DNA of 50,650 nucleotides from a virus. Where the stretch lies: positions 1 to 50,650 of IMG/VR virus record IMGVR_UViG_3300034682_000034. The stretch is one strand, 5' to 3'. Positions 128 through 50,650 of this stretch are shown piece after piece. How positions within the stretch are numbered: position 1 is the stretch's first letter; each line of letters opens with the position of its first letter. The notes below the pieces were generated by a model. The model worked only from the letters and a program-made list of their open reading frames with translations, did not search any database and was not told the DNA's origin. The position numbers were made by a program, and so were the translations under genes.

Positions 128-179
128 TGGAATTGGGTATGAAAGAGCAATTAATGAAATAATTGCATTGTTGAAGTAA
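1..179 (+). CDS. 3' part of a 79-aa hypothetical ORF that starts at 50463 and crosses the contig junction
   Basis: The frame continues from 50463 through the duplicated 127 bp to TAA at 177-179. Its ATG overlaps the portal stop (ATGA). Confidence 0.5.
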   Translation, partial: LSSPLLRKRLTELLMTKQRKSYEDRISKNSYDSPNWAALQADGIGYERAINEIIALLK

Positions 180-195
180 CAAAATCATCATTTTT

Positions 196-335
196 GGAGT
201 ATATACATATGCGCTCCCAGTATTAATATATATTAATATATATATATATATAAGTATATTATATATTAAGTATATTAATTATGTATATAAATTTATGTAT
301 ATAATTAGATAAAGACCTTATCTATTAAATTAAAG
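196..335. promoter_or_regulatory. TA-rich element 1: 17-mer GGAGTATATACATATGC (196-212), about 100 bp of pure A/T, and two tandem TTATGTATATA copies (279-289, 293-303) just upstream of the scaffold gene
   Basis: The same 17-mer and the same architecture recur at 36338-36437. The position, 38-62 nt upstream of the ATG at 341, suits a late promoter. Confidence 0.5.
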
Positions 336-340
336 AAACA

Positions 341-1144
341 ATGTCAGATAATCTATTTAATCCTCAGACCACTGAGAACAACACTACACCTCCTGTTAAT
401 AACAATGGTGCACTGAATGACCTTCTAGCATCCATTAAGAATGAACAGGGACAACCTAAGTATCGTTCCATTGAAGATGCATTGAAGGGTCTCCAGCATG
501 CACAATCCTACATTGCAGAAGTAAAGCAAGAACGAAACACTATTGCAGCTAAGCTTGAAGAAGAAGCTGCAAAAGCACGAGAGGTTGAGGAACTAAAACG
601 TGTAGTTGCAGAAATTACTCAGAAGCAAGATAAGAAGGATGTACAACCTACACCATCTATCGGTGCTGATGATATTACGAATTTGGTTAAGTCCCAACTA
701 GCTATCGAACGCCAACAAGAACAACAGTCTCTCAATAAAAACATGGTTCGTAAGGCACTCGTTGAGAAGTTTGGTGAAGAGAAAGCTGCTGAAGTATTTA
801 ACCAGAAAGCTGATGAGCTAGGATTGAGTGCTGAAAAGCTAACTCAAATCGTTGCAGAGAGTCCGAAGGCTGCACTTGCTATGTTGGGTGTAAGCGGGGA
901 TGTTGCTCATAAGCAAACAGGTTTTTCCCCCAATTCGACTAAGCTCCGTACAGAAGGCGTACCTCAAAGACGAGAATCCCTTATCGGTAAGCTTGATGCT
1001 TTCCGTCTACCTACAGGTCATACTGATTCAGACGTTAAAGCATTGAAACAACGGTCAGATCAGCTCCTTGAAGAACTGAATGAAAACGGTATTACTGTTG
1101 ACGACTTGACCATCCCATCTAACTATTTTAAAATTTTTCGTTAA
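341..1144 (+). CDS. Scaffolding protein (putative)
   Basis: 267 aa, charged and helical (EEEAAKAREVEELKRVVAEI). It lies between the portal region and the major capsid gene. Confidence 0.6.
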   Translation: MSDNLFNPQTTENNTTPPVNNNGALNDLLASIKNEQGQPKYRSIEDALKGLQHAQSYIAEVKQERNTIAAKLEEEAAKAREVEELKRVVAEITQKQDKKDVQPTPSIGADDITNLVKSQLAIERQQEQQSLNKNMVRKALVEKFGEEKAAEVFNQKADELGLSAEKLTQIVAESPKAALAMLGVSGDVAHKQTGFSPNSTKLRTEGVPQRRESLIGKLDAFRLPTGHTDSDVKALKQRSDQLLEELNENGITVDDLTIPSNYFKIFR

Positions 1145-10400: not shown

Positions 10401-12466
10401 GGGCTGATGCCTACTGGGATATGAATCAAGTGTCTGGACGAATTGCTCAACGCCATCGTGGTAAGCTTCTGGAGAACACTGTAGGTTTTAAAACGTACGG
10501 AGCTGATGACTTCATTGAAAACCCTGCTGACTCGGCTGTGAGAGCAGCTACAAGCATGGGTGGACGAATCGCAATGAAGGAAGTCATTGATACCGCAAAA
10601 GAACGATTTATGAAGCAGTATGGTCACATGTTGGCCGGACCTGATTATCAGAAAAAGTTCCCCACAAGTCGTGATATGCTTTTGGTGAAGGGTGAACAAT
10701 CTACCAAGGAATTGGCAGATGCACGTACAACCTGGGAATATATCAACTACATGGAGAGCGGATACATCAATGGTATGTCGGAAATCTCTAAGAGAGCTTT
10801 TAATACCGCTGCTGATGCTTTGGGTCTGCGTGGTTATAAGGTTGTTGAAAACCTGACTAGAGAACTTGCAGATGCGAATATTCAAGGAGCTATTAAGGGT
10901 GGTGTTTTTGCAGCATACCTTGCAACTAATCCGCTGAGACAGTGGCTGGTTCAGACCAATCAAGTTTGGCGGCTACTTGGGTATTCCGGTACACGTATGA
11001 ACGCTGTGTTTGATCTTGGTGGCAGTTTTGCTAATCCAGCTAAAGCAACAGCATTGCAAAAGGAGTTTCAAGATTTTTACAAGAGCACTGGTTTTGTTCA
11101 AGCAATTTCTAGAAGTAATCTTGTTAGAGGTACACTTCTGGATGCCGCTAATCGCCAGAACGCTGTAAGTCGAGCTTACGATAAGGCTGTACAGGCTGGT
11201 AGAGCTGTTGGCTATGACATTGGTGAGAATATCAATAATATTATGGCTTCCGCTGCTGTGTTTGATAAATATAAACAAGCAGGTAAAGATGTTAATGATA
11301 AGCTGGTTCGTGCAGAAATGCATGCTGAAGCTAGAGCTTTGAATCGTAATATGTCCTATGCAGGAGATATGCCTTACAATCAAAACTCTCTAGCACTGGC
11401 ATTCACATACATGCAAGTCCCTCATAAGTTTGCACTGCAAGGATTTGATAGAACTCTTGATCCTAAGATGCGAGCTAGATTGATTGCTGCTGACTTGGCT
11501 CTTTGGGGGCTCCCCGGTGTGGCTGTTATGCAAGCAATTGCAGGTAATGACATTCTCCCAGAAAACGCCAATGTTCGAGAAGTTCTCACTGATGGGTTGC
11601 AAAGCTTCCTGATTAACAAGACATTCCAGCTTGCTTACAACGATGCATCTGCTGGTATTGATCTAAGTTCCCTGGCTCCATATGATATGGATTCTTGGAA
11701 TAAAATGATCAATGGGCTATTGTTTGATGGTGGATTGTCAGCTCTAGTGTCTAATTCCCCAGCAGGACGTGTATTTGGTTTGTCAGCAGATAGCCGTCTA
11801 GGGTATGCAATCGAAACCACTTCCATGTTCTTCAAGGATTTGATGGAAGATAAAATGACGGCTGTAACTGTTAAAGATGTAGCAGATGCATGGGCACGTA
11901 TGTCCTCGGGGTATACTAACTTGCAAGAAGCTAAGATCATGTACCAGCTTGGTAAGGTGATTGATAAGCAGGGGCGGACTGTTGATGACACCGTTACCAC
12001 TCCAGAAGCAATTGCTAAGGTGTTCGGTTTCGGAACTAAGGCAACTAAGGATTATTATGAAACAATCCTTAAGGCTAGTGAGATTGATAAGCAGTGGCAA
12101 GAGTCGGCTAGAGCAGATGCTAAACTAATCTTCCAAATGATTAGAGGTTTGAATGACGGAGACATGCAAGGAGCTAGAGCTGTTGCTATGTTGTCACAAG
12201 CCCTAGCAGATGCTTCTAACTTCCCAAGTAAACAAGCACAAGCTCAATACCTAGCAACCATGCAAGCAGAAACGCAAAAATCCGCAAACTTCAAAGTGAT
12301 CGAGAAGCTGGCTAAAGTCGCTGGCTACCCTGACCCATCTGAAGGATTTGCGGATTTGGCTAAGACAGCTCCTCTGAGTGCAGAAGAGAAGTCTATGTAT
12401 ATGGAAGCTATGAATAAGAATTACAAGTTCTGGAATGAACTTGAGAAGGCTAACAAGGAAAAATAA
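7418..12466 (+). CDS. Giant internal virion / DNA-ejection protein (putative)
   Basis: 1682-aa ORF in the position held by gp15/gp16-type ejection proteins in podoviruses. Confidence 0.6.
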   Translation: MDNEQSQIDPILYREPDEDQKVVITALPDRALNVEAAALALLENDDEAALEKFKNLSGTPRNMKPEMITREGERHMRDFEDYIRSGLVKVLADPTVPIEQKTEVVKQSQSGSFAPPDAQTTLYNKALIADSAGESEKGSKVRESMAMSAFKAAEILEERQGIINAAVGKRDGTLNQVTDFLSMLVPLEAGITAAKVANKEGGSVAVAGVLPGTYMRKLSDKFKGMPIEEQNAYLQELATIVSSSSGLTTSKNQLRTEAWLSEISGGMGTADEMLENFFNLLDIVGLGSTIKGLPKTLAKASDSAKALSSRAQAEVGKNAKDWFERTGQDVRMSKQYDPETGSISEDVMSNIGRQEVVPSIPKFNKDVQDAAKLEAQAVQLKDTASLKLSRDEFEETRSSLESIKSQKPKLSPNATPAELQGYLEAKKVYQETVQGLTQKLEIHRNAEKAEDALPDVLNKIETLKNSEALEPVPLNPIAAAIDRAYNQSFLFTHNPRTPGFILNLTNPDKARAVQAQIIINQSDELAEAIHGVNRQEALVKAVAPQITDATGRVKKLVDDPELSIRSIMASELGESIKNTHDGFRYTEKEIASARANIVGNYKEVTGLQLNDAMTSFSFDGDTIKVSGVYTNGQGGWTTSEEAISQAKFALRDRGVKDSDIEVLKLDGDEFVPVDKDAVSGQEGVFAVRLNVEDRITDADVGEWDKLDVKRNFLDRFQTQGSGAGWSRFVFEPNSMLHRRLTGPMSVADDKSTIITNSLLLKFEKFTDSYVKLPNNIKKDVDHYIRDANVHEIAFDRVALSNRFPPNVVDMLQEWRDAWDTMYLLENAEVVKAVDKEGYKLFSHPNIEAVVKQRPKRFENNVAYDPAIDSVRTLTKTEIDDIYNKGGYIGEFRRPMTLNGSTSDFMIVRNTPTEYARKLRDDDRLLNYREGYYQVSYKTPKFIDEEYTDSSGVKRTRTIGVAGSVKEAKAAVDRLQSQGNGNTYKYRGDERDVRRGADAYWDMNQVSGRIAQRHRGKLLENTVGFKTYGADDFIENPADSAVRAATSMGGRIAMKEVIDTAKERFMKQYGHMLAGPDYQKKFPTSRDMLLVKGEQSTKELADARTTWEYINYMESGYINGMSEISKRAFNTAADALGLRGYKVVENLTRELADANIQGAIKGGVFAAYLATNPLRQWLVQTNQVWRLLGYSGTRMNAVFDLGGSFANPAKATALQKEFQDFYKSTGFVQAISRSNLVRGTLLDAANRQNAVSRAYDKAVQAGRAVGYDIGENINNIMASAAVFDKYKQAGKDVNDKLVRAEMHAEARALNRNMSYAGDMPYNQNSLALAFTYMQVPHKFALQGFDRTLDPKMRARLIAADLALWGLPGVAVMQAIAGNDILPENANVREVLTDGLQSFLINKTFQLAYNDASAGIDLSSLAPYDMDSWNKMINGLLFDGGLSALVSNSPAGRVFGLSADSRLGYAIETTSMFFKDLMEDKMTAVTVKDVADAWARMSSGYTNLQEAKIMYQLGKVIDKQGRTVDDTVTTPEAIAKVFGFGTKATKDYYETILKASEIDKQWQESARADAKLIFQMIRGLNDGDMQGARAVAMLSQALADASNFPSKQAQAQYLATMQAETQKSANFKVIEKLAKVAGYPDPSEGFADLAKTAPLSAEEKSMYMEAMNKNYKFWNELEKANKEK

Positions 12467-15944: not shown

Positions 15945-15953
15945 ATTAGAAAC

Positions 15954-16019
15954 AAAAAAACCCCGGAGGGGCTTAAGAGAGTAATTTCTCCTAGGCTCCT
16001 GCCGGGGTTTTTTTTTGTT
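15954..16019. terminator. Bidirectional intrinsic terminator at the convergence point of the two gene blocks
   Basis: AAAAAAACCCCGG ... CCGGGGTTTTTTTTT: an A7 run, a GC stem and a T9 run between the stops at 15944 (+) and 16044 (-). Confidence 0.8.
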
Positions 16020-16043
16020 ATTAGGGGTTAAATACCCCAACCT

Positions 16044-24498: not shown

Positions 24499-26384
24499 TA
24501 ATGTACCTCATACCAGCTTCCGCCGACTTTACCGTCACCCTTGTGAGGGCAAACGATCTTAAAAAACTTACCAGCCCAGACAATTGATTCTTCAGAAATA
24601 CGTTGCACTTCCTCAGCAATATCTGGATCACATTCAATTGTATATTCATCATGGTACCAGCACACAAACCCCCATTGTTTACCCCATTCAAATCGCTTAG
24701 AAAGCTCTGTGAACGTGCGAATGTAGGCTGCGGTCATCATGATAGCTTCGTCACTTTGAAGCTCATACACAAGCAACTGGTGCTCGTATGGAACCTTAAC
24801 AGGTCTACCATCTAATCCGATGATATATCCATCATAATATTCCATCTTACCCCATTTAGAATTCCATCGTTTCTTGGCAGTTGAACGCCATTGCAACAAT
24901 AAACTCTCCATGTGAGCACCTAAACCATCAAACCCTCGATACAACCTAGCTCGAATGTCAGCACCTTCTCCTGGCTTCTTGGCAGTTTTCCCAAGTTTAG
25001 GATCACCACCTCCAAACAAAAGACAATACATCACGTTCTTAGCAATATCTCGGCTTTCAAGCTCTGCAATTTTACGTGTTAATGAGTGTAGATCAGTTCC
25101 GAGTTCCTTCTTACCAGTTACGATTGCTCGAATATACTCCTCGCTACCCATGCGGCCACCTAACATTCGCAGTTGACAGGAATCAGAGTCAGTCGATACC
25201 AACACTTTACCGTTACGTGCTACGAACAAGGCTCGCATTCGCTTACCTAGATAACTAGATGCTTTAGGAATATTGACGATATTACGATGAATAGCTCTGC
25301 TAGTTTCAGCCAAATTAGAGACTACTGAAGGGATAGCACCATCGTCTCTAACAAGTGTTAGCAAACCTCTAACGATACTTTGCCTTTGCCGTGTTTGCAC
25401 ACGTTTAGCAATAAGCCTACCCAAACTACCTTGAATGCCTTCAAACGGATCGTCTTTAGACATTTTAGGAGAAGTTCGCTCACCCGCATCGTTAGTGTTC
25501 CATTCAATCGGCTCCCAACCTAAATTTAGCAGGTAAGTCTTAGTTTCATCATTAGAGTTTAAATCTACAGGACGGAAACTAACACGGCTATAAGGCCCGC
25601 CAACAATACGATTGGATATAACTTCACTGTCAGCACCCCAATACCGGAGGACATGTTGGTTATAATTCCCAGATTTAAGGAACGGTTCTTTAACATATTT
25701 ATATTCACCGTTTATTTTTGTTTCTTGCACCTCCAAGACTAAAGGAAGATTGGGAGAGATTGCTCGATCAATACGTTCAATACGTTTATCTAGGAACTGG
25801 ATAAGATTTTCTGCCTCTATAGAGTCAAATTTCCATCCGTACTCTTCTTGCTTTTGCAAGCATTCAAAGAGTTTGAATGTCATTTTAAATGCATTCGTCC
25901 AGTTCTTACCCTCTGCCTCTTTCATCAACATGTGGTAAGTTTTCACATTGATGAGTGTATCTTCCAAACAGCGATGTTGAATCGCATCTGAGTGAACTTC
26001 CCAATCATCATTTTCTGGCTTATCTACCCCACACCTAACACCCCAAGCATAAAGACTATGAGGTCCAGCCTTACGATCTTTGGCATTAGGGGGGAGTAGT
26101 CTCTTTGGATTGAGTAGCCGAGACATGATAAGCGTATCTACTTTCGTGCCCTTATATGTATACCCCAACACTTTTTGCAGCATGGGAAAATCATAACCGA
26201 TGATATTGTGTCCAATCACAACATCCACTGTATCAAGATACGCTGGGAGTTTTCCAATATTCAAGGGAGTGAATTGTGCAACAACTTCTTCAGCAAGATT
26301 TCTGAAAACTGCACAGTGAAGCTTCGTAACTGTGGGTAACAGTCCATCTGCTTCAGCATCCATCACTTGAACATTTCTTCTCAT
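24498..26384 (-). CDS. DNA polymerase, family A, with 3'-5' exonuclease
   Basis: Exo motifs VMDAEADGL and HNIIGYDFPML. Pol motifs DSDSCQLRML, RDIAKNVMYCLLFGGG and YHDEY. Confidence 0.9.
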   Translation of the reverse strand: MRRNVQVMDAEADGLLPTVTKLHCAVFRNLAEEVVAQFTPLNIGKLPAYLDTVDVVIGHNIIGYDFPMLQKVLGYTYKGTKVDTLIMSRLLNPKRLLPPNAKDRKAGPHSLYAWGVRCGVDKPENDDWEVHSDAIQHRCLEDTLINVKTYHMLMKEAEGKNWTNAFKMTFKLFECLQKQEEYGWKFDSIEAENLIQFLDKRIERIDRAISPNLPLVLEVQETKINGEYKYVKEPFLKSGNYNQHVLRYWGADSEVISNRIVGGPYSRVSFRPVDLNSNDETKTYLLNLGWEPIEWNTNDAGERTSPKMSKDDPFEGIQGSLGRLIAKRVQTRQRQSIVRGLLTLVRDDGAIPSVVSNLAETSRAIHRNIVNIPKASSYLGKRMRALFVARNGKVLVSTDSDSCQLRMLGGRMGSEEYIRAIVTGKKELGTDLHSLTRKIAELESRDIAKNVMYCLLFGGGDPKLGKTAKKPGEGADIRARLYRGFDGLGAHMESLLLQWRSTAKKRWNSKWGKMEYYDGYIIGLDGRPVKVPYEHQLLVYELQSDEAIMMTAAYIRTFTELSKRFEWGKQWGFVCWYHDEYTIECDPDIAEEVQRISEESIVWAGKFFKIVCPHKGDGKVGGSWYEVH

Positions 26385-27938: not shown

Positions 27939-29591
27939 TTAAATCTCCGTAAAAACTGTTGTATCTGGGTTCCAATACATAGGGTAGGAACCAACCTCGC
28001 CATACTCTCGTGCTTCCAAAATAACCAACTGTCTAACATTACGTTGTTCAGGCGGAAGTTCTGGATCACGATTACCCTCTAAACCCAACATTAGATTGCA
28101 TGAACGAGCCATTGCTCGTGAACCTGCGAATTGAGAAGAGAGAACCTTACCACCACGTTCATGTGGAGGACCATTATCTGGATTCTTCAAGTGACAGAAG
28201 ATGAAGATAACAATATTGAGATCAAGAGCCATTGCACTTAGTTCTTGAGCAATTTTCTGCAACATTACGTTGGCTTCACCCGATTCCATACCGTTGGTTA
28301 GGTTAGTGATCGGGTCAATGAAAACAGCTTTAGCACCTGCAACAGCCGCTGCTCTGATATCGTCCTTCAAGGTTTCCCATCCAACGTGCTGATATAGGTT
28401 AAGCATCTCGAGTTTATCTCCGATAACTTCACCAGCAGCATCATAGGCTTCTTCGTCAAAAGCAACTTTAGGATCGTGAAATCTCTTGTGGGCAATCTTT
28501 CCTGCAATTAACTTGTAGGACTTCTTGTTCTCTTCTTCGGGTTTGCAGAGGAAGACTTTCCATCCCAAATCCTTGATGAAGTATGCAGCAAGTTGATTAA
28601 CCACTTCCGATTTGCCTTGTTTCTGACCCGCTCCAAGATAGATGGTTTCACCAAGACGGATGCCCCGCGTTGCTTCATTGATTCCTTTCCAAGGCCAAGG
28701 GAATCCCCATTCAGGCGGCTTCTTAGCTGCCTCATGAAGATCACGACCATTGACCAATCGTGTATTTTTTGGCTTTGATGCTCGGAAAACAATAGCATTC
28801 TGAATTTGCTTACTGATTCCATCAATTAACCCCTGATTAACATCTTTACAAGGAAGCTCTGCTACTTTAGCTTCAGGGAAAACCTTGAGAGCTTTTTCGA
28901 TAGCTTCTTTACCAGCAACATCTTTATCCATAATCAAGATGACATTCTGCCATTGCTTACGGATTTGAGCACCATACTTCGTCAACATCTTTGCTAAGGA
29001 TGATGCACCAGATGGTACAGAGATAACTGCTGGAGTCCAGCTTGCATATTCAGGATTGCGTTTATTGCTTTCCCGAATAATTTGAAATAATGCTACAGCA
29101 TCAAATTCACCTTCCGTGATATATAAGTTTTTACCTTCACTCAACAATGCCTGATGCCATCCAAACGGAGCTGCGTCACGGGTTGTACCGACAGCCCACA
29201 TCATTTTAGGGGAAAGCAACCTAGCTTTGTAGCCAAGAAGTTTACCTGCATCATCGAAGTAAGGGAAATAAACAGACTCAGGTGTTGAACCATCAACTCT
29301 ACTCACTCCAGTTTTGATTCCGAAATGATTCAAGTATTCTTGTTTCAACTTCCGAGAAGGAATAGATACCGTTTGATAAGTACCAATCTCAGCAATTTCT
29401 GCTTGACTTTCTTCCTCAGTCTTTACATGAACTTTTGGAGCGTATCCCTCTTCCCTGTCTGAATAGGGATTTGGAATGAATGTCCCACATGCAAAGCAAT
29501 ATCCTGTGTATTTACCATCCTCTTGAAACACTTGAAGACCATCACGGGAGCCACAAGTATGAGGTAGTTTTTCAACACATCGTCTGGTCAA
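27939..29591 (-). CDS. Bifunctional primase-helicase (T7 gp4-like)
   Basis: Zn finger CGSRDG..CFACG, TOPRIM YITEGEFDAVAL/IMDKDVAGKEA, Walker A GAGQKQGKSE and Walker B VFIDPITN. The ORF track uses a TTG start. Confidence 0.9.
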   Translation of the reverse strand: MTRRCVEKLPHTCGSRDGLQVFQEDGKYTGYCFACGTFIPNPYSDREEGYAPKVHVKTEEESQAEIAEIGTYQTVSIPSRKLKQEYLNHFGIKTGVSRVDGSTPESVYFPYFDDAGKLLGYKARLLSPKMMWAVGTTRDAAPFGWHQALLSEGKNLYITEGEFDAVALFQIIRESNKRNPEYASWTPAVISVPSGASSLAKMLTKYGAQIRKQWQNVILIMDKDVAGKEAIEKALKVFPEAKVAELPCKDVNQGLIDGISKQIQNAIVFRASKPKNTRLVNGRDLHEAAKKPPEWGFPWPWKGINEATRGIRLGETIYLGAGQKQGKSEVVNQLAAYFIKDLGWKVFLCKPEEENKKSYKLIAGKIAHKRFHDPKVAFDEEAYDAAGEVIGDKLEMLNLYQHVGWETLKDDIRAAAVAGAKAVFIDPITNLTNGMESGEANVMLQKIAQELSAMALDLNIVIFIFCHLKNPDNGPPHERGGKVLSSQFAGSRAMARSCNLMLGLEGNRDPELPPEQRNVRQLVILEAREYGEVGSYPMYWNPDTTVFTEI

Positions 29592-29671
29592 TAGTTTTAA
29601 TCTCCTGTGGTTAGTTAGCCCCTGCCTTTTTAAAGCAGGGACTTGTATATACCAAAAATATCAGAATTTTG

Positions 29672-30454
29672 TTACTGATATTGGGCAAAACCCTCAACAT
29701 ATTTGTTAAGAGTTGTACCAGCAAGACCACATGCACTGTTTACTTCCAGAACATTGACCTTACCTCGTGCTGTGACAACAACATCCACTGCGCCAAAATC
29801 CAAGCCAAGGGCCATGATAGCATTCTTAGCCTGTTCCTTTACAGCTTCGGGTGCTTGCACATCTTGATTGGTATAGATGAATCCGCCATCCAGATTACGA
29901 ACTTGCCAGTTGACATTCTCATCAGGAACATCAAGCTTACGAGCTTTTCGCTGAACGAAGAATACTTCACCATTCATCACATGGACCCGATACTCATCCT
30001 TCTTAGGGATGTATTGGACATAGAGAGGAGCTTGTACCAATTGATCAACTGATTCAGCAATGACAATACCTTGTCCGCTGTGACCAGTCAAAGTCGTTCG
30101 ACAAACCACTTTCTTACCCTCACGAATCCAACCTTCTGCTACAGCCTTGTCACGAGTGTAATTTGGGAACTCAACTTTATTAGGTTGACCCTCAATACCG
30201 TTATGCAAGCTGAAAGTATCGAAAGTTTTCAGCTTATCCCCACTGATACGCAGCTTGTGCGGAGGGTTCAAGATTCTAGCCCCTCCAGCGACTTCTACAA
30301 CCTGATCCTTACTACTCCCCCAATTGATCAAGATATCGCCTTCACGGCCCTTCCAGCGGCCTCCTTGAAGCTTGACACGCTTGATGCCCAATGCATCTGC
30401 CAGAGCCTTGCAAGAAGCAGAACCCTGCTTGTATGGAAACAATTTCTTAGTCAT
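29672..30454 (-). CDS. ATP-grasp fold ligase (RimK/R2K-like)
   Basis: YVQYIPKKDEYRVHV and LDFGAVDVVVTARGKVNVLEVNSACGL. Confidence 0.75.
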   Translation of the reverse strand: MTKKLFPYKQGSASCKALADALGIKRVKLQGGRWKGREGDILINWGSSKDQVVEVAGGARILNPPHKLRISGDKLKTFDTFSLHNGIEGQPNKVEFPNYTRDKAVAEGWIREGKKVVCRTTLTGHSGQGIVIAESVDQLVQAPLYVQYIPKKDEYRVHVMNGEVFFVQRKARKLDVPDENVNWQVRNLDGGFIYTNQDVQAPEAVKEQAKNAIMALGLDFGAVDVVVTARGKVNVLEVNSACGLAGTTLNKYVEGFAQYQ

Positions 30455-35485: not shown

Positions 35486-36350
35486 ACTCCTGAGTTAGTT
35501 TGATTATGTGTTCAAGCACAGATTTGTTCTTGTACTCTTTAACTTCATCACCATATAGCTTTGTTGTTTTATAGGGTGTAATACCTTTCCACGGATTGCC
35601 TTTGAAATGTTTCTGATCATGGGCCATCAACTGCCAGCGACTATACATCCCTGGGTCTGGGTCCCAATTATTAGCCCACAAGTTCTTACCACTTGCAATA
35701 AACTTGAACAACTTATCCAGGCTGATTTCACCACGAGCGTTGAAGGCTTGATGGCTTGGCTGAAGGTTGGGCGTATCTCTGGTTAGATCAAAAATGAATG
35801 CCAAGTGAACTGCAACAATTTCAGGTACACCATACTCTCGAAGATAATTGAATGTCTTGTAAGTAGAAGGTAGCTCTGTAGGTGCTCGAAGAGACACAAC
35901 GAAACGACCAAAATCATTCTGATTATAATCGTTAATATTGTGTAACAGAACCGTATTGTCTGAAGTGCGAATGAATCGTCCCTCATTCAATTTCAGAATT
36001 GCTTCAAAGAAATTGTTACTGGTTTCTTTATCAGAACGTTTACCAAGTAGGTGAAGAACGTGATGTACTTTTCGATCTTTGTAATCGTTATCCAAAGATG
36101 CAGCACAAACACGCCTGGTGTTCAATACCTCGATATGAAGGCCATCTTCACGGTATGAACCACCAACACCCCACCATGGTTCAAATTGAGATGAACCATA
36201 TGGACGAAACTTCAACAGTTTCTCGTCGAATTCTATGTAATTCTGACAAGCAGCAGGTACTTTCCCAAACTCTTGAACAAGTTTATCAAAATTTTTAGGT
36301 AATTTCACATCACCTCCGTAACAAAAACAGTGTTTCGGGAGTATATACAT
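35466..36350 (-). CDS. Hypothetical protein, first gene of the ligase operon
   Basis: 294-aa ORF. The ATG at 36350 lies inside the conserved 17-mer. An alternative GTG start at 36308 is preceded by GGAGG. Confidence 0.6.
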   Translation of the reverse strand: MYILPKHCFCYGGDVKLPKNFDKLVQEFGKVPAACQNYIEFDEKLLKFRPYGSSQFEPWWGVGGSYREDGLHIEVLNTRRVCAASLDNDYKDRKVHHVLHLLGKRSDKETSNNFFEAILKLNEGRFIRTSDNTVLLHNINDYNQNDFGRFVVSLRAPTELPSTYKTFNYLREYGVPEIVAVHLAFIFDLTRDTPNLQPSHQAFNARGEISLDKLFKFIASGKNLWANNWDPDPGMYSRWQLMAHDQKHFKGNPWKGITPYKTTKLYGDEVKEYKNKSVLEHIIKLTQEYGIEQS

Positions 36351-36437
36351 ATGCCGCCGGAGGCAATATATATATATATATATAATTATATAAATATATT
36401 TATATAAATATAATTATATTATGTATATACTATAATT
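36338..36437. promoter_or_regulatory. TA-rich element 2: 17-mer GGAGTATATACATATGC (36338-36354), about 65 bp of pure A/T, and TTATGTATATA (36417-36427)
   Basis: Same 17-mer and layout as 196-335. The minus-oriented ATGTATATA copy faces the ligase operon. Confidence 0.5.
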
Positions 36438-36617
36438 TATTACTTCTTGAGCTTCAGGAATTTATCCTTGGGCAGACGAGTTTGAACATAATACCCACCA
36501 ACCTTGGTGAAATATTGAGGATGCTTCAAACCTTGTTTCTTGATTTCAAAGAAACCATCACCCAAATCCACAATGGATTCAATTTGTTCAGGATTGCAGA
36601 TGTAAGACAGCTTGGAC
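36438..36617 (-). CDS. Hypothetical 59-aa protein (below the ORF-track cutoff)
   Basis: Hand translation gives MSKLSYICNPEQIESIVDLGDGFFEIKKQGLKHPQYFTKVGGYYVQTRLPKDKFLKLKK. Confidence 0.5.
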
Positions 36618-36695
36618 ATATTCAGCTTTCATTAAACAGTGCGACTTTGCACCAGTAAGCCCTCTCGCTAAAGAAGACTTACGGGAGATCGTCAA

Positions 36696-37052
36696 TTATT
36701 TCAATTGTTTGATCTTGATGAAATATTCAGGGTGATCACTGACCAAGGAACAAATCCTGTAGTCAGGGGTTACTCTAAACACCTTTCCTCGTGTAAAACC
36801 CCGGATTAGAACCTCCCTGCTAGTGTTCCATTGGCAAAGCCACACTTCCAGGCGTTCATGATCAGCTTTGGGCCACGGAGAGAATGATAGCTCTCGTGCG
36901 CTATATTGGCGCAAACCAACGCTAGGGAAGTGCACCAGGATGTTACGTTCGTTATCCTTAACATGGTTTTGGCAGTTCAGTTCTTTCACCACGCCTTCAC
37001 CGTAGAAGATGTGATGAACCGTGTCACCTACTTTAAATGGATGGTCCATCAC
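36696..37052 (-). CDS. Hypothetical protein, paralog family A (copy 1)
   Basis: HPFKVGDTV...GEGVVKE...ELSFSPWPKADHER is shared with 37544-37873. Confidence 0.6.
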   Translation of the reverse strand: MMDHPFKVGDTVHHIFYGEGVVKELNCQNHVKDNERNILVHFPSVGLRQYSARELSFSPWPKADHERLEVWLCQWNTSREVLIRGFTRGKVFRVTPDYRICSLVSDHPEYFIKIKQLK

Positions 37053-39058: not shown

Positions 39059-39135
39059 TGGTACGCCGTACTGGAATCGAACCAGTGACCCACAGCTTAG
39101 AAGGCTGTTGCTCTATCCAACTGAGCTAACGGCGC
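39059..39135 (-). tRNA. trnR-UCU: tRNA-Arg (anticodon UCU), CCA encoded
   Basis: Hand-folded cloverleaf: GCGCCGT/ACGGCGT acceptor stem (G1-U72), D arm GCTC-AGTTGGATA-GAGC, anticodon arm ACAGC-CTTCTAA-GCTGT, T arm ACTGG-TTCGATT-CCAGT, then A-CCA. Confidence 0.9.
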
Positions 39136-39154
39136 AATGTTACGGAATACACAT

Positions 39155-39177
39155 AAAAACCCACTGTTTCCAATGGG
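39155..39177 (-). terminator. Possible intrinsic terminator upstream of the tRNA
   Basis: On the minus strand, CCCATTG-gaaa-CAGTGGG (one mismatch) is followed by TTTTT. Confidence 0.4.
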
Positions 39178-39289
39178 CTTATGATGAACACTCAATAACC
39201 ATCCATGTCACGTTCGAGGGAGCTTAGTCCCCACAAAGTTAATAGGGATAACCCTACGACAAGGAACAATGCAAAGATGGTTATATAAG

Positions 39290-40110: not shown

Positions 40111-40183
40111 ACATCGTTCCTTTTAAACAGTGCAACATTGCACAGGTATGCACCCTTACACAAGATGCATACGCTTTGCACAG

Positions 40184-41046: not shown

Positions 41047-41241
41047 TCAAAATCGAATCCGAATTCGATCATAATCAGCGCGCTTTGTCGGTTGTATGGC
41101 TCCCATTCGGAAAACCCTGATGGAGAACCACACTGCACATAACGAACCATCCATGTGCCGGTGTTTAGAATCAAACGTAATTGCATAATACCCCCAGTGA
41201 ATAAGTGTATGTACTCGATGTGAATACATAGATTTATTCAT
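41047..41241 (-). CDS. Hypothetical 64-aa protein, first ORF of the leftward block
   Basis: A GAGG lies 4 nt upstream of the ATG. The composition is unremarkable, and the ORF contains a partial copy of the early repeat. Confidence 0.4.
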   Translation of the reverse strand: MNKSMYSHRVHTLIHWGYYAITFDSKHRHMDGSLCAVWFSIRVFRMGAIQPTKRADYDRIRIRF

Positions 41242-41697
41242 TCAACCTCTAGCCTTGATGTAACCGGATAAGAAAGCATGATAGCTCCCCTACCCGTCGT
41301 GCATTTTCACTTTGGCATCATACAATTACACTGTAGTCCGTGGCCTACAGATTCATTATACGATGTTTCCCCATTGCTACTAATGTAGAACGCAAATACA
41401 CCAAGGCTAGATTGTGAATGAAATAATGCAGGCTATAGCATCATTACAGGGACCAATACGTTTTCAGGTTTTCACTTAGGTTTGCCCTACCACAGACATA
41501 CTATCTTAACCGCTGACAGTGTAGGGGTCAACGATGTAACCACGGTTACACCTCACCCTCCCTGCCACGGGATTATCTATGAATAGTTCTTAGCTTTGTT
41601 ACTAACTAGAACCCGTATCAGTTTTTAATGAGAGGCTACAGCAATAGGCACGATGACCCTCTGCATGAGGCAAGCATTGTTTGCTTGCTTGTCCCGT

Positions 41698-41725
41698 ATT
41701 ATGCCTGAATTGGTTTTGTTGTCAA
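41698..41725 (-). promoter_or_regulatory. Sigma70-like leftward promoter (TTGACA-16 nt-CATAAT)
   Basis: The reverse complement reads agtgcTTGACAacaaaaccaattcaggCATAATacg. Confidence 0.45.
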
Positions 41726-41887
41726 GCACTATTTACAGTGCCTTGCGTGTCGCCACTTCTAAGCTCCGTCCTAATAGATGGATGAAAAGCTCTTACTGCC
41801 CGCGATTTATGAGGGACTACCTCACACACATAAGACTAACCAATTCAGACTTTTAAAGAACAAGCAAGATTGCTTGCGATGGTGTGT

Positions 41888-41917
41888 ATTCTACAGAGCT
41901 TTTAAAGCCCTTGTCAA
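41888..41917 (-). promoter_or_regulatory. Sigma70-like leftward promoter (TTGACA-18 nt-TAGAAT)
   Basis: The reverse complement reads gtgTTGACAagggctttaaaagctctgTAGAATacac. Confidence 0.4.
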
Positions 41918-42110
41918 CACCGTGGTTTCTTTCAAACCTTGCATGCGTTAGTACCGCATGACACTGTGGAATTACACTCTACGACTAAGGGCCACAAACC
42001 CTAATCACTCTGCACTGCTGCACCTAAGTGCTTATTGGCTGGCGATGTGATTAATGTAATGGGTAAATCCTTGAATCCAATGTAGTAGAAACCCTAGTAC
42101 GTAAACATAC

Positions 42111-42165
42111 GTATGCACAGGCTCCAACCGCATTTCATGCGATAGCTATTGAGCTTGTATGCACA
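42111..42165 (+). promoter_or_regulatory. Two outlying DnaA-box-like 9-mers GTATGCACA (42111-42119 and 42157-42165)
   Basis: Each matches TTATNCACA at 8/9 positions. The second lies inside the hairpin CTTGT-atgc-ACAAG. Confidence 0.4.
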
Positions 42166-42355
42166 AGCCCTGTTTTATTAATAAGCGCGCCCCTGCGGGC
42201 GCATTAGTAATACACCACAAACCCTATATAAATCAATAGCTTATGCGCGAAGGGTAAGCAGGTTTCTATATAGATGGCTAGCAGGGTTGGTATGAAACTG
42301 GTGGTGGTTGGTTATTGATCCCCCATTATCAATAGCCCTAATCTATCAATACACC

Positions 42356-42398
42356 TTATCCACAGGCTATCCACACAGATATACACAGGATATGCACA
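42356..42398 (+). promoter_or_regulatory. Array of four head-to-tail DnaA boxes
   Basis: TTATCCACA (42356, 9/9), CTATCCACA (42367), ATATACACA (42379) and ATATGCACA (42390). All lie on the same strand with 11-12 bp phasing. Confidence 0.65.
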
Positions 42399-42534
42399 AG
42401 TGCTAGGGGGTAGGCAGGGGGTTGGGGGTGGTTCAGTAGGGTGCATTGACCCTAAAAAATTTCTTATAAAAATTATCATATACGGAGGTCTACAAAATTT
42501 ATGAAAAAGTACAAAGTTCGAGGAATTAATTATA

Positions 42535-50466: not shown

Positions 50467-50650
50467 AAACATCTATTCTAGCAGGTTTAGAAGGCGAGGA
50501 GAAGAAAAACGTAGAGGGGGAATACCTAAGTAGCCCCCTGCTACGAAAACGTCTCACAGAGCTTCTAATGACAAAACAACGTAAATCGTATGAAGATCGT
50601 ATCAGTAAAAACAGTTATGACAGTCCTAATTGGGCTGCATTGCAAGCTGA
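50463..50650 (+). CDS. 5' part of the 79-aa junction-spanning hypothetical ORF (continues at 1-179)
   Basis: The ATG at 50463 overlaps the portal TGA. Translation begins MKTSILAGLEGEEKKNVEGEYLSSPLLRKRLTELLMTKQRKSYEDRISKN... Confidence 0.5.
   Translation, partial: MKTSILAGLEGEEKKNVEGEYLSSPLLRKRLTELLMTKQRKSYEDRISKNSYDSPNWAALQA
50524..50650. repeat. Second copy of the 127-bp terminal redundancy
   Basis: Identical to 1-127. Confidence 0.95.

Follow-up and report, generated by a model that had tools for sequence, protein, structure and literature searches.

Two AT-rich elements that share an identical 17-mer are present in this phage genome, one just upstream of the scaffold gene and the other at the edge of the amidoligase cluster. 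The question that they raise is whether they are promoters, which sigma factor would read them, and what role is left for the long AT tracts that follow. The window (the whole stretch of 50,650 nt that was analysed) is a circular assembly, as bases 1-127 recur at 50524-50650, and it holds a podophage genome of about 50.5 kb. The closest relative is PQ867852, an oyster-metagenome phage of the Zobellviridae, with about 92% identity over 89% of the genome. Late genes fill the plus strand between 42.5 kb and 16 kb, across the assembly junction, in the order lysis and tail genes, terminase, portal, scaffold (341), capsid (1152), tail tube and internal virion proteins. The minus strand, from about 41.9 kb down to 16 kb, carries the early and middle genes, beginning with small early genes and continuing with the amidoligase cluster (29.7-36.3 kb), primase-helicase, sigma, DNA polymerase, exonuclease and nucleotide metabolism. 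A non-coding region of 1.2 kb (41.24-42.45 kb) probably contains the physical genome ends, and a sigma-70 scan located good sigma-70-type promoters on the minus strand at 41.5-41.9 kb.

The 17-mer, GGAGTATATACATATGC, is found in the window at 196-212 and 36338-36354 only, even when two mismatches are allowed, and two occurrences were reached in none of 100 shuffles; the earlier note had thus counted and placed it correctly. It turns out to be the downstream half of a two-part motif, GTAACA-N17-GTATATAC(A), within a longer repeat of 37 nt (176-212 versus 36318-36354) that is 84% identical, with all its mismatches in the spacer. GTAACA-N17-GTATATAC is present in three copies, at 176+, 36318+ and 29675-, which are named here P1, P2 and P3. 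A search of the window with GTAACA-N(16-20)-TATATAC gives exactly three matches, all with the same spacing, against 0.01 expected. The boxes are identical between copies, whereas the spacers differ at 6 of 17 positions, and this combination of invariant boxes and variable spacers is the pattern expected for a two-part protein-binding site. The twins P1 and P2 lie on the same DNA strand and therefore take opposite orientations relative to their neighbouring genes. GTATATAC is itself a palindrome and, within this window alone, reads the same on either strand. A hairpin GGAG...CTCC around the -10 box of copy 1 was considered and rejected, as it is not conserved in copy 2.

What follows the 17-mer is equally distinctive, since a content of at least 93% A/T over 40 nt is reached in the whole window only by the two tracts after its two copies. 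The description given in the earlier note, a GC-containing spacer followed by pure A/T, holds for the GC block of both copies and for the tract of copy 2 (pure A/T over 36365-36422), but the tract of copy 1 is C-free with G residues, each of them within a GTAT or TTAG motif. Both tracts are strongly self-complementary AT-only palindromes that can fold into long hairpins of A/T pairs alone (z about -3), with a second GTATATA box at the end of each: TTATGTATATA is found at 279-289, 293-303 and 36419-36429, and the tracts close with TTATGTATATA(A/C) about 82-98 nt past the first box. The inverted repeats said to bracket each element are indeed there, and in copy 2 the bracket extends to a perfect 12-nt inverted repeat (AGTATATACATA at 36340-36351, TATGTATATACT at 36420-36431). 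As the AT tract and second box accompany P1 and P2 and not P3, and the same is seen in several lineages, they are to be regarded as part of the module and not as filler. The parts of P1 and its surroundings are the following.

176..181, plus strand: P1 -35 box GTAACA, which has the ECF-type AAC and whose TAA is the stop codon of a small ORF after the portal gene
182..198, plus strand: P1 spacer of 17 nt, variable in sequence among the three copies and constant in length
196..212, plus strand: copy 1 of the exact 17-mer, with the -10 box at 199-206 (GTATATAC) and the start region predicted at about 208-214
213..220, plus strand: P1 GC block GCTCCCAG, directly after the predicted start, with an analogous block in P2 and in PQ867841
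221..312, plus strand: P1 AT-rich, C-free tract, the predicted leader, with an AT-only hairpin (224-277) and sense GTATAT boxes at 254 and 270
279..290 and 293..304, plus strand: tandem TTATGTATATAA boxes, the 'box 2' of the module, between which a 12-bp hairpin is possible
306..324, plus strand: small hairpin TAGATAA-N5-TTATCTA, preceding the ribosome-binding region
341..1144, plus strand: scaffold protein gene, followed by the major capsid gene (1152-2090), the two genes that P1 would serve

A candidate reader of the two-part motif is encoded by the phage itself.

26381..26866, minus strand: gene for the ECF-type sigma factor of 161 aa that presumably reads P1, P2 and P3

That the phage carries its own sigma, as the earlier note had said, is confirmed by this protein, which consists of sigma-2 and sigma-4 domains only. 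The sigma-2 domain is clear (Pfam Sigma70_r2, E 4.5e-9) and the sigma-4 domain is weak (a weak r4_2 match). Its best solved relatives in the PDB are SigL, SigE, SigW and sigma-E, and its sequence, of a generic ECF type, does not support the label 'gp36-like': the phiEco32 gp36 chain is absent from its PDB matches even at E<=10, and phiEco32 is absent among its tblastn matches (E<=1e-3). ECF promoters have been characterised by a -35 AAC, group-specific -10 boxes such as CGTA, spacers of 14-17 nt and self-regulation (PMC5758882). The motif GTAAC-N17-(A/G)GTATA fits this pattern at the level of sequence, with its -35 AAC (within GTAACA in all three copies), its GTA-type -10 and its 17-nt spacer, which is found in all three copies and in the twins of eight other lineages.

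The comparison with relatives was made on whole genomes with a homologous sigma beside the DNA polymerase, in which the region upstream of the scaffold gene served as the query for a best second match within that genome. These relatives are not phylogenetically independent. A sigma homologue adjoins the DNA polymerase gene in PQ867843, PQ867840, PQ867839, CW02, PA11, PQ867841 and PS32B-4, and the syntenic ORF of Pecta gives a faint Sigma70_r2 match (E 0.054). The following twins were found.

PQ867843, 649- and 12031-: GTAACA (AAAATAATTTGTAACAAAA)...GGTATTAT
PQ867840, 44819- and 5828-: GTGACA (TTTGTGACA)-N17-GTATATATAAGTGAGG, with (TA)10 after the second copy
PQ867839, 40150- and 3690-, plus a sense copy at 12056+: TGACCCC (TAATTATGACCCCATTC)...
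Salinivibrio phage CW02, 34032- and 46117-: GTAGAG (TGTAGAGATT)...CTAAAAA...ACTATAT
Pseudomonas phage PA11, twin pair: TTAGGAGA-N16-GTA, with (TA)9-10 after both copies
PQ867841, 40561+: GTCACA-N17-GTCAAATA, with GC block and (TA)n present
Erwinia phage Pecta, 7385+ and 46174+: TGAAAC+TTTTT-N17-GTC(A/T)TAT, that is, the canonical ECF -35 box and T-tract
Vibrio phage PS32B-4, 3606+ and 43046+: GAGGG(G/T)-N17-CTATATAA

The layout is common to nine related lineages, with the sigma recognisable in seven and faint in one at the same gene position: a promoter-like motif just past the small ORF upstream of the scaffold gene, and a twin of it on the late-gene strand. According to the deposited annotations, the first copy is always sense and upstream of the scaffold, and the second is always on the late-gene strand. 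In eight lineages, including that of the window, this second copy is antisense and falls in an intergenic gap, either within the early region or where that region ends; PS32B-4 is the exception, its second copy immediately preceding the first late genes. The window, PQ867841, PQ867840 and PA11 each have an AT-only palindrome or a run of (TA)9-10 after P1 or P2. The -35 box varies between genomes and is identical within each genome, which is the signature expected if the sites are read by each phage's own sigma. The window and PQ867843, which share the -35 GTAACA, also share the sigma-4 helix N-[IV]-R-[KQ] at 19% overall identity, and PQ867840, with -35 GTGACA, has NVTT at that position; this apparent co-variation of sigma-4 helix and -35 box is suggestive, in a few genomes only.

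Upstream of the relatives' scaffold genes a strand-specific GTATAT-type motif was found at the same place, conserved in position and orientation, as would be anticipated from the promoter idea of the earlier note. TAGTATAT is present in 15 of 50 distinct scaffold-upstream regions and its reverse complement in 1 of 50, which is a strongly strand-specific distribution, and the distance from the preceding stop codon to the first GTAT box is 24-28 nt in many of 49 IMG/VR relatives. In many relatives tRNA genes separate this site from the scaffold gene, and their presence implies transcription of the region. The exact 17-mer was of less use for such searches: it gave 114 matches in IMG/VR and metagenome contigs, none with GTAAC or AT-tract context, and close-range footprinting was confined to PQ867852, as the 17-mer scans gave no other close relative. 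A scan of IMG/VR with GTAACA-N17-GTATATAC, which has 14 specified bases, yielded at least 118 single chance matches and is uninformative.

Taken on these sequence comparisons, P1, P2 and P3 are read here, with a probability of roughly 0.6, as promoters for the phage's own ECF-type sigma, the twins P1 and P2 having AT-palindromic leaders. The proposed model is that host RNA polymerase carrying the 161-aa sigma would recognise the -35 GTAACA and, after the 17-nt spacer, the -10 GTATATAC, so that the exact 17-mer would cover the -10 box and the start region, and both twins would fire rightwards on the late (plus) strand. The late-promoter idea of the earlier note would then be right in kind, but the main promoter is probably at the 17-mer and not at the tandem ATGTATATA boxes, which it had correctly located 38-62 nt upstream of the scaffold ATG at 341. 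P1 (176-212) would drive the scaffold and capsid genes through a C-free, AT-rich leader of about 130 nt, the scaffold ATG being 135 nt downstream of the P1 -10 box. The tandem boxes at 279-304 may act as extra proximal promoters that are independent of a -35 box.

The proposed promoters resemble those of B. subtilis sigma-W (TGAAAC-N16-CGTA) and sigma-X in their two-part layout, -35 AAC and fixed spacer of about 16-17 nt. Other features in common with ECF promoters are the short -10 with a GTA or GTC core, the near-consensus match in every copy and possibly a self-regulating copy (P3) upstream of what would be the sigma's own operon, and the twin of Pecta carries a literal tGAAACnTTTt box. In contrast to ECF systems, the sigma is a phage product for which no anti-sigma gene was identified, the -10 is AGTATATA and not CGTA, an A-tract and not a T-tract follows the -35, and the output would be a timed lytic programme and not a stress response; two of the three copies, moreover, precede long AT-only palindromes.

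P3, the inverted third copy, has no AT tract and is sense-oriented with respect to the genes downstream of it, those for primase-helicase, sigma and DNA polymerase.

29645..29675, minus strand: P3, GTAACA-N17-GTATATAC, starting at the stop codon of the ATP-grasp gene
29620..29640, minus strand: GC hairpin CCCTGC-N9-GCAGGG, just past the P3 -10 box in the predicted 5' leader, followed by a ribosome-binding site and the primase-helicase gene

P3 and the sigma gene share a strand, P3 being 2.8 kb upstream, and no obvious terminator intervenes. P3 would feed the replication and sigma operon, which would be the self-regulating arrangement that is typical of ECF sigmas. P2 and P3 were also considered as the borders of a mobile cassette, that is, as inverted repeats flanking the amidoligase cluster; this was rejected because P1 shares the motif and the relatives' copies are placed according to the logic of transcription, not around the cluster.

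P2, the antisense twin, is on the late-gene strand and antisense to both of its neighbours, which are minus-strand genes.

36318..36354, plus strand: P2, with -35 GTAACA (36318-36323), a 17-nt spacer, -10 GTATATAC (36341-36348) and the 17-mer (36338-36354)
36355..36364, plus strand: P2 GC block CGCCGGAGGC
36365..36434, plus strand: P2 AT tract with a (TA)n run, containing an AT-only palindrome (36367-36434) and ending in TTATGTATATAC (36419-36430)

On one side, the probable start codon of the first amidoligase-cluster gene is GTG 36308, preceded by the ribosome-binding sequence GGAGG; in the annotation of PQ867852 its start is instead an ATG inside the 17-mer. On the other side there is a 59-aa gene (36440-36619), three of whose four differences from PQ867852 are synonymous on the minus strand; this marks it as a real gene, and P2 as antisense to real genes. 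All 129 aligned positions of P2, AT tract included, agree with PQ867852, against 91% identity in the ORF next to it; the two phages differ by one unit in the length of the (TA)n run. A bidirectional P2 was rejected, as the minus strand has no GTAACA at N17. In its own direction P2 meets no gene for about 6 kb, a point against its being a promoter, and the motif scan of the window gave no GTAACA-N17-type motif directly upstream of the late arm at 42.5 kb.

P2 (36318-36354) stands at the boundary between the early genes and the amidoligase and replication genes. Its transcripts would head for the late arm at 42.5 kb, crossing the early genes in antisense, and besides P1 it would be the only other sigma-type promoter on the late strand. 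To judge from the arrangement in PS32B-4, the first late operon (tail, lysis, terminase and portal genes) would be transcribed from P2. In most lineages this promoter would now lie 2.5-6 kb upstream, and its transcripts would first cross early genes antisense. Should the genome ends indeed fall within the non-coding region, only joined or concatemeric DNA would let transcripts from P2 extend into the late genes. Candidate functions of the antisense twin are reading into the late genes, shut-off of early genes and a T7-like origin.

On the promoter reading, the AT tracts would make up the first 70-100 bases of the transcripts, but a promoter alone does not account for their function, which weighs against that reading. 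The candidates are a T7-like origin, an RNA leader (for RNase III-type processing or antitermination) or the extra -35-independent promoters mentioned above; an Rfam scan returned a tRNA as its sole match and no known RNA family. It is tentatively proposed, as a possible extension of the promoter reading, that the module is either a sigma-fired origin or a cis leader for processive late transcription, with antisense shut-off and concatemer-dependent late expression. In the first variant, host polymerase with the phage ECF sigma would tie the initiation of replication to sigma production. In the second, P2 transcripts would run antisense and cross the joined ends into the tail, terminase and portal genes. 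This second variant recalls lambda nutL/nutR and HK022 putL/putR, where two promoters also have a similar cis element of about 70-100 nt each, and long operons with internal terminators likewise need read-through. The lambda late operon crosses cos, and in the same way P2, like pR', would cross the probable genome-end region to reach the late genes. The comparison with lambda and HK022 is an analogy only: the leaders here are AU-only hairpins, unlike the structured, GC-containing RNAs of nut and put, and no antiterminator is known here.

A different promoter assignment would dispense with the -35 box. It holds that phiEco32-like, -10-only ATGTATATA boxes act in the sense of the genes, at 281-289 and 295-303 (plus strand) for the scaffold and at 36350-36342 (minus strand) for the amidoligase operon, with the AT tract as an upstream enhancer. 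ATGTATATA does occur six times in the window against 0.41 expected (200-, 281+, 295+, 2602+, 36342- and 36421+), each element, when read in the sense of the genes, has TATGTATATA 30-52 nt before a start codon with the AT tract ahead of it, and a GTAT box precedes the scaffold ATG by 29-38 nt in about 10 of 49 relatives. The phiEco32 consensus that the earlier note gave was essentially correct, 5'-AATGTA-3' centred at -11.5 (PMC12276001), and it shares the core TGTA; TATGTA, a 5/6 match, is found at 280-285, 294-299 and 36420-36425 and on the opposite strand of both 17-mers. This assignment is nevertheless unlikely. No relationship between the 161-aa sigma and gp36 is detectable, the sigma-4 domain of the former leads one to expect a -35 box, and the proximal boxes have no conserved -35 partner. 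The twins of PQ867840, PQ867843, PQ867839, PQ867841 and Pecta lie on the late strand only, with no sense box upstream of the middle operon. As these twins have non-palindromic -10 boxes that are unambiguously on the late strand, the idea that the inverted 9-mer bracket represents two outward- or inward-facing promoters was rejected as well.

The link to phiEco32 is accordingly one of resemblance only. Both systems have a small phage sigma that steers (here, would steer) host polymerase towards late genes, a -10 core with TGTA or GTAT in it, and the same amidoligase cluster in the genome. The C-terminal domain of gp36 has been found to contact the -35 region as well (PMC12276001). The sigmas, however, have no detectable sequence similarity, and here there is a conserved -35 box at fixed spacing.

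The T7-type origin, in which transcription from a promoter activates an easily melted AT tract and primes a T7-like replisome, is compatible with the sigma-promoter explanation and would extend it. The T7 counterparts of P1 and P2 would be phi1.1A/B or phiOR, host polymerase with the phage sigma replacing T7 RNA polymerase. Every T7 origin needs a promoter, the primary one being phi1.1A/B and the secondary ones phiOR and phi6.5 (PMC8373140). In T7 origins (phi1.1A/phi1.1B with their AT-rich region; phiOL, phiOR) a promoter is followed by an AT-rich tract, and in the window an AT-rich, meltable tract lies downstream of each predicted twin promoter (221-312, 36365-36434). The replisome encoded here is T7-like, with Toprim and DnaB_C fused in one 550-aa protein, a family A polymerase (DNA_pol_A) and a 5'-3' exonuclease, as identified by Pfam, and like that of T7 it seems to have no dedicated initiator; no origin-binding or initiator protein was found among those of its proteins that were scanned. 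One copy of the element lies at the early/middle boundary, as in T7. The two T7 promoters phi1.1A and phi1.1B are 75 bp apart, and the -10-like boxes here are similarly in tandem, about 80-100 bp apart. AT-only palindromes or (TA)9-10 runs follow P1/P2-type copies and not the sense-oriented P3, and P2 has no nearby gene to express, while both P2 and its AT tract are fully conserved against PQ867852.

Several observations make this origin doubtful all the same. GC skew, tried as an origin signal, was rejected because it merely tracks the direction of transcription; direct reading of the AT tracts revealed no GTC primase sites on either strand; and the leaders of PS32B-4 and Pecta are AT-rich but are not (TA)n runs. 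Hybrids of rU:dA, moreover, prime poorly. The system also differs from T7 in that host polymerase with a phage sigma, not a single-subunit phage polymerase, would be used, and in that P2 is antisense to its neighbours.

If the preferred reading of P1-P3 as phage-sigma promoters were wrong, the elements could be ordinary host sigma-70 promoters with AT-rich flanks, in which the phage sigma plays no part. GTAACA, GTGACA and GTCACA resemble TTGACA (4-5 of 6 positions), the spacing to TATATA is 18 nt, and the relative L201 carries TGGTATAAT, a perfect extended sigma-70 -10 box. This explanation is improbable, though, as the -10 TATATA lacks the near-invariant final T and most relatives also have another base at that last position (TATAAC, TATTAG, TATAAG), whereas the preceding G is conserved. 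The -35 boxes GACCCC, GTAGAG, TAGGAG and GAGGGG are unlike TTGACA and yet identical within each genome. A scan for sigma-70 promoters and terminators around the elements gave nothing above chance, the good sigma-70 promoters being located elsewhere, in the 41.5-41.9 kb region.

Finally, a small functionless AT palindrome (MITE-like or cruciform), mobile or derived from recombination and inserted twice, could account for the perfect 12-bp terminal inverted repeat of copy 2, the strong self-complementarity of the tracts (z about -3) and the one-unit (TA)n difference from PQ867852, but it is very hard to credit, given the absence of a target-site duplication, the lack of GTAAC or AT-tract context in all 114 matches of the 17-mer (IMG/VR, metagenome contigs), the equivalent, sequence-unrelated twins of distant relatives at the same positions and the stronger conservation of P2 than of the adjoining coding sequence.

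The element would thus belong to a known class, that of phage-sigma promoters, and what is unusual about it is the conserved antisense twin and the AT-palindrome leader. The Zobellviridae and their relatives have T7-like virions and replication and no phage RNA polymerase, and podophages of this type are common in marine, oyster, Pseudomonas and enterobacterial samples. No promoter or transcription-start study and no biochemical data were found in the literature for this phage group, for whose own sigma the present analysis supplies a concrete predicted promoter consensus. A putative late promoter buried antisense in the early region points to early shut-off, replication-coupled late transcription or a sigma-dependent origin. 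The pairs of sigma and -35 box that appear to co-vary between these phages could, in addition, serve as orthogonal sigma/promoter parts in synthetic biology.

The two ends of the window carry an exact duplication of 127 nt. The sequence represents a circularised assembly whose length is about 50,523 bp, and the physical ends of the genome are not given by it. These ends are likely located in the 1.2-kb non-coding region from which the early and late arms diverge; this region shows only about 83% identity to PQ867852 (L001), the oyster-metagenome phage of the Zobellviridae that is the nearest relative of the window, and is alignable with it just in part. The features of the ends and of this region are:

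1-127 and 50524-50650: exact 127-nt duplication
41240-42450: non-coding region
41917, 41725 and 41531, minus strand: three good predicted sigma-70-type promoters
41232-41262 / 41397-41427: 31-nt inverted repeat
about 42406-42431: G-run block

The late arm meets the middle arm at a bidirectional intrinsic terminator, and late transcripts must read through two hairpins that are placed within the arm itself:

2100-2150: terminator hairpin, 3' of the capsid gene
2700-2730: terminator hairpin, 3' of the next gene
15950-16030: bidirectional intrinsic terminator, at the convergence point of the two arms

The intergenic region upstream of the scaffold gene is an insertion hotspot. In many IMG/VR relatives, including loci L129, L132, L134, L136, L137, L159, L161, L166 and others, the leader that extends from the promoter-like motif to the scaffold gene harbors either a single tRNA gene or several of them. 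In the window a tRNA gene is found in the early region, and the Salinivibrio phage CW02 also has tRNA-Arg in this region. The early features are:

39059-39135, minus strand: tRNA-Arg gene, anticodon TCT
39157-39180: terminator-like hairpin preceding the tRNA-Arg gene
36632-36674 and 40123-40165: 43-nt direct repeat, 74% identical, each copy just upstream of a small early gene on the minus strand
36699-37052, minus strand: 118-aa early protein

The direct repeat, which contains the palindrome GTGC-N6-GCAC, may serve as an operator or regulatory site for early genes. The 118-aa protein gave a weak, sub-threshold match (E 0.0033) to the PcrA/UvrD Tudor domain. This domain binds RNA polymerase, and the protein could act as an early modifier of the host polymerase.

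Two further genes differ from PQ867852:

43820-46498, plus strand: 892-aa tail protein gene
27939-29591: primase-helicase gene, 550 aa, counterpart of PQ867852 12351-14815

The tail protein gene is unusually GC-rich (0.51-0.53 versus about 0.43 elsewhere). No alignment to PQ867852 is obtained for its central part, which looks like an exchanged host-range cassette. The primase-helicase gene is intact in the window, whereas in PQ867852 it is annotated as two pieces with an HNH endonuclease gene between them, which suggests that a homing endonuclease, an intron or an intein has inserted in that phage. In Vibrio phage PS32B-4 (L326), the sigma is encoded as two adjoining ORFs (25471-26027, minus strand), one of 85 aa with sigma-2 only and one of 101 aa with sigma-4 only. 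Either this sigma is split, or a frameshift or an artefact of annotation accounts for the two ORFs.
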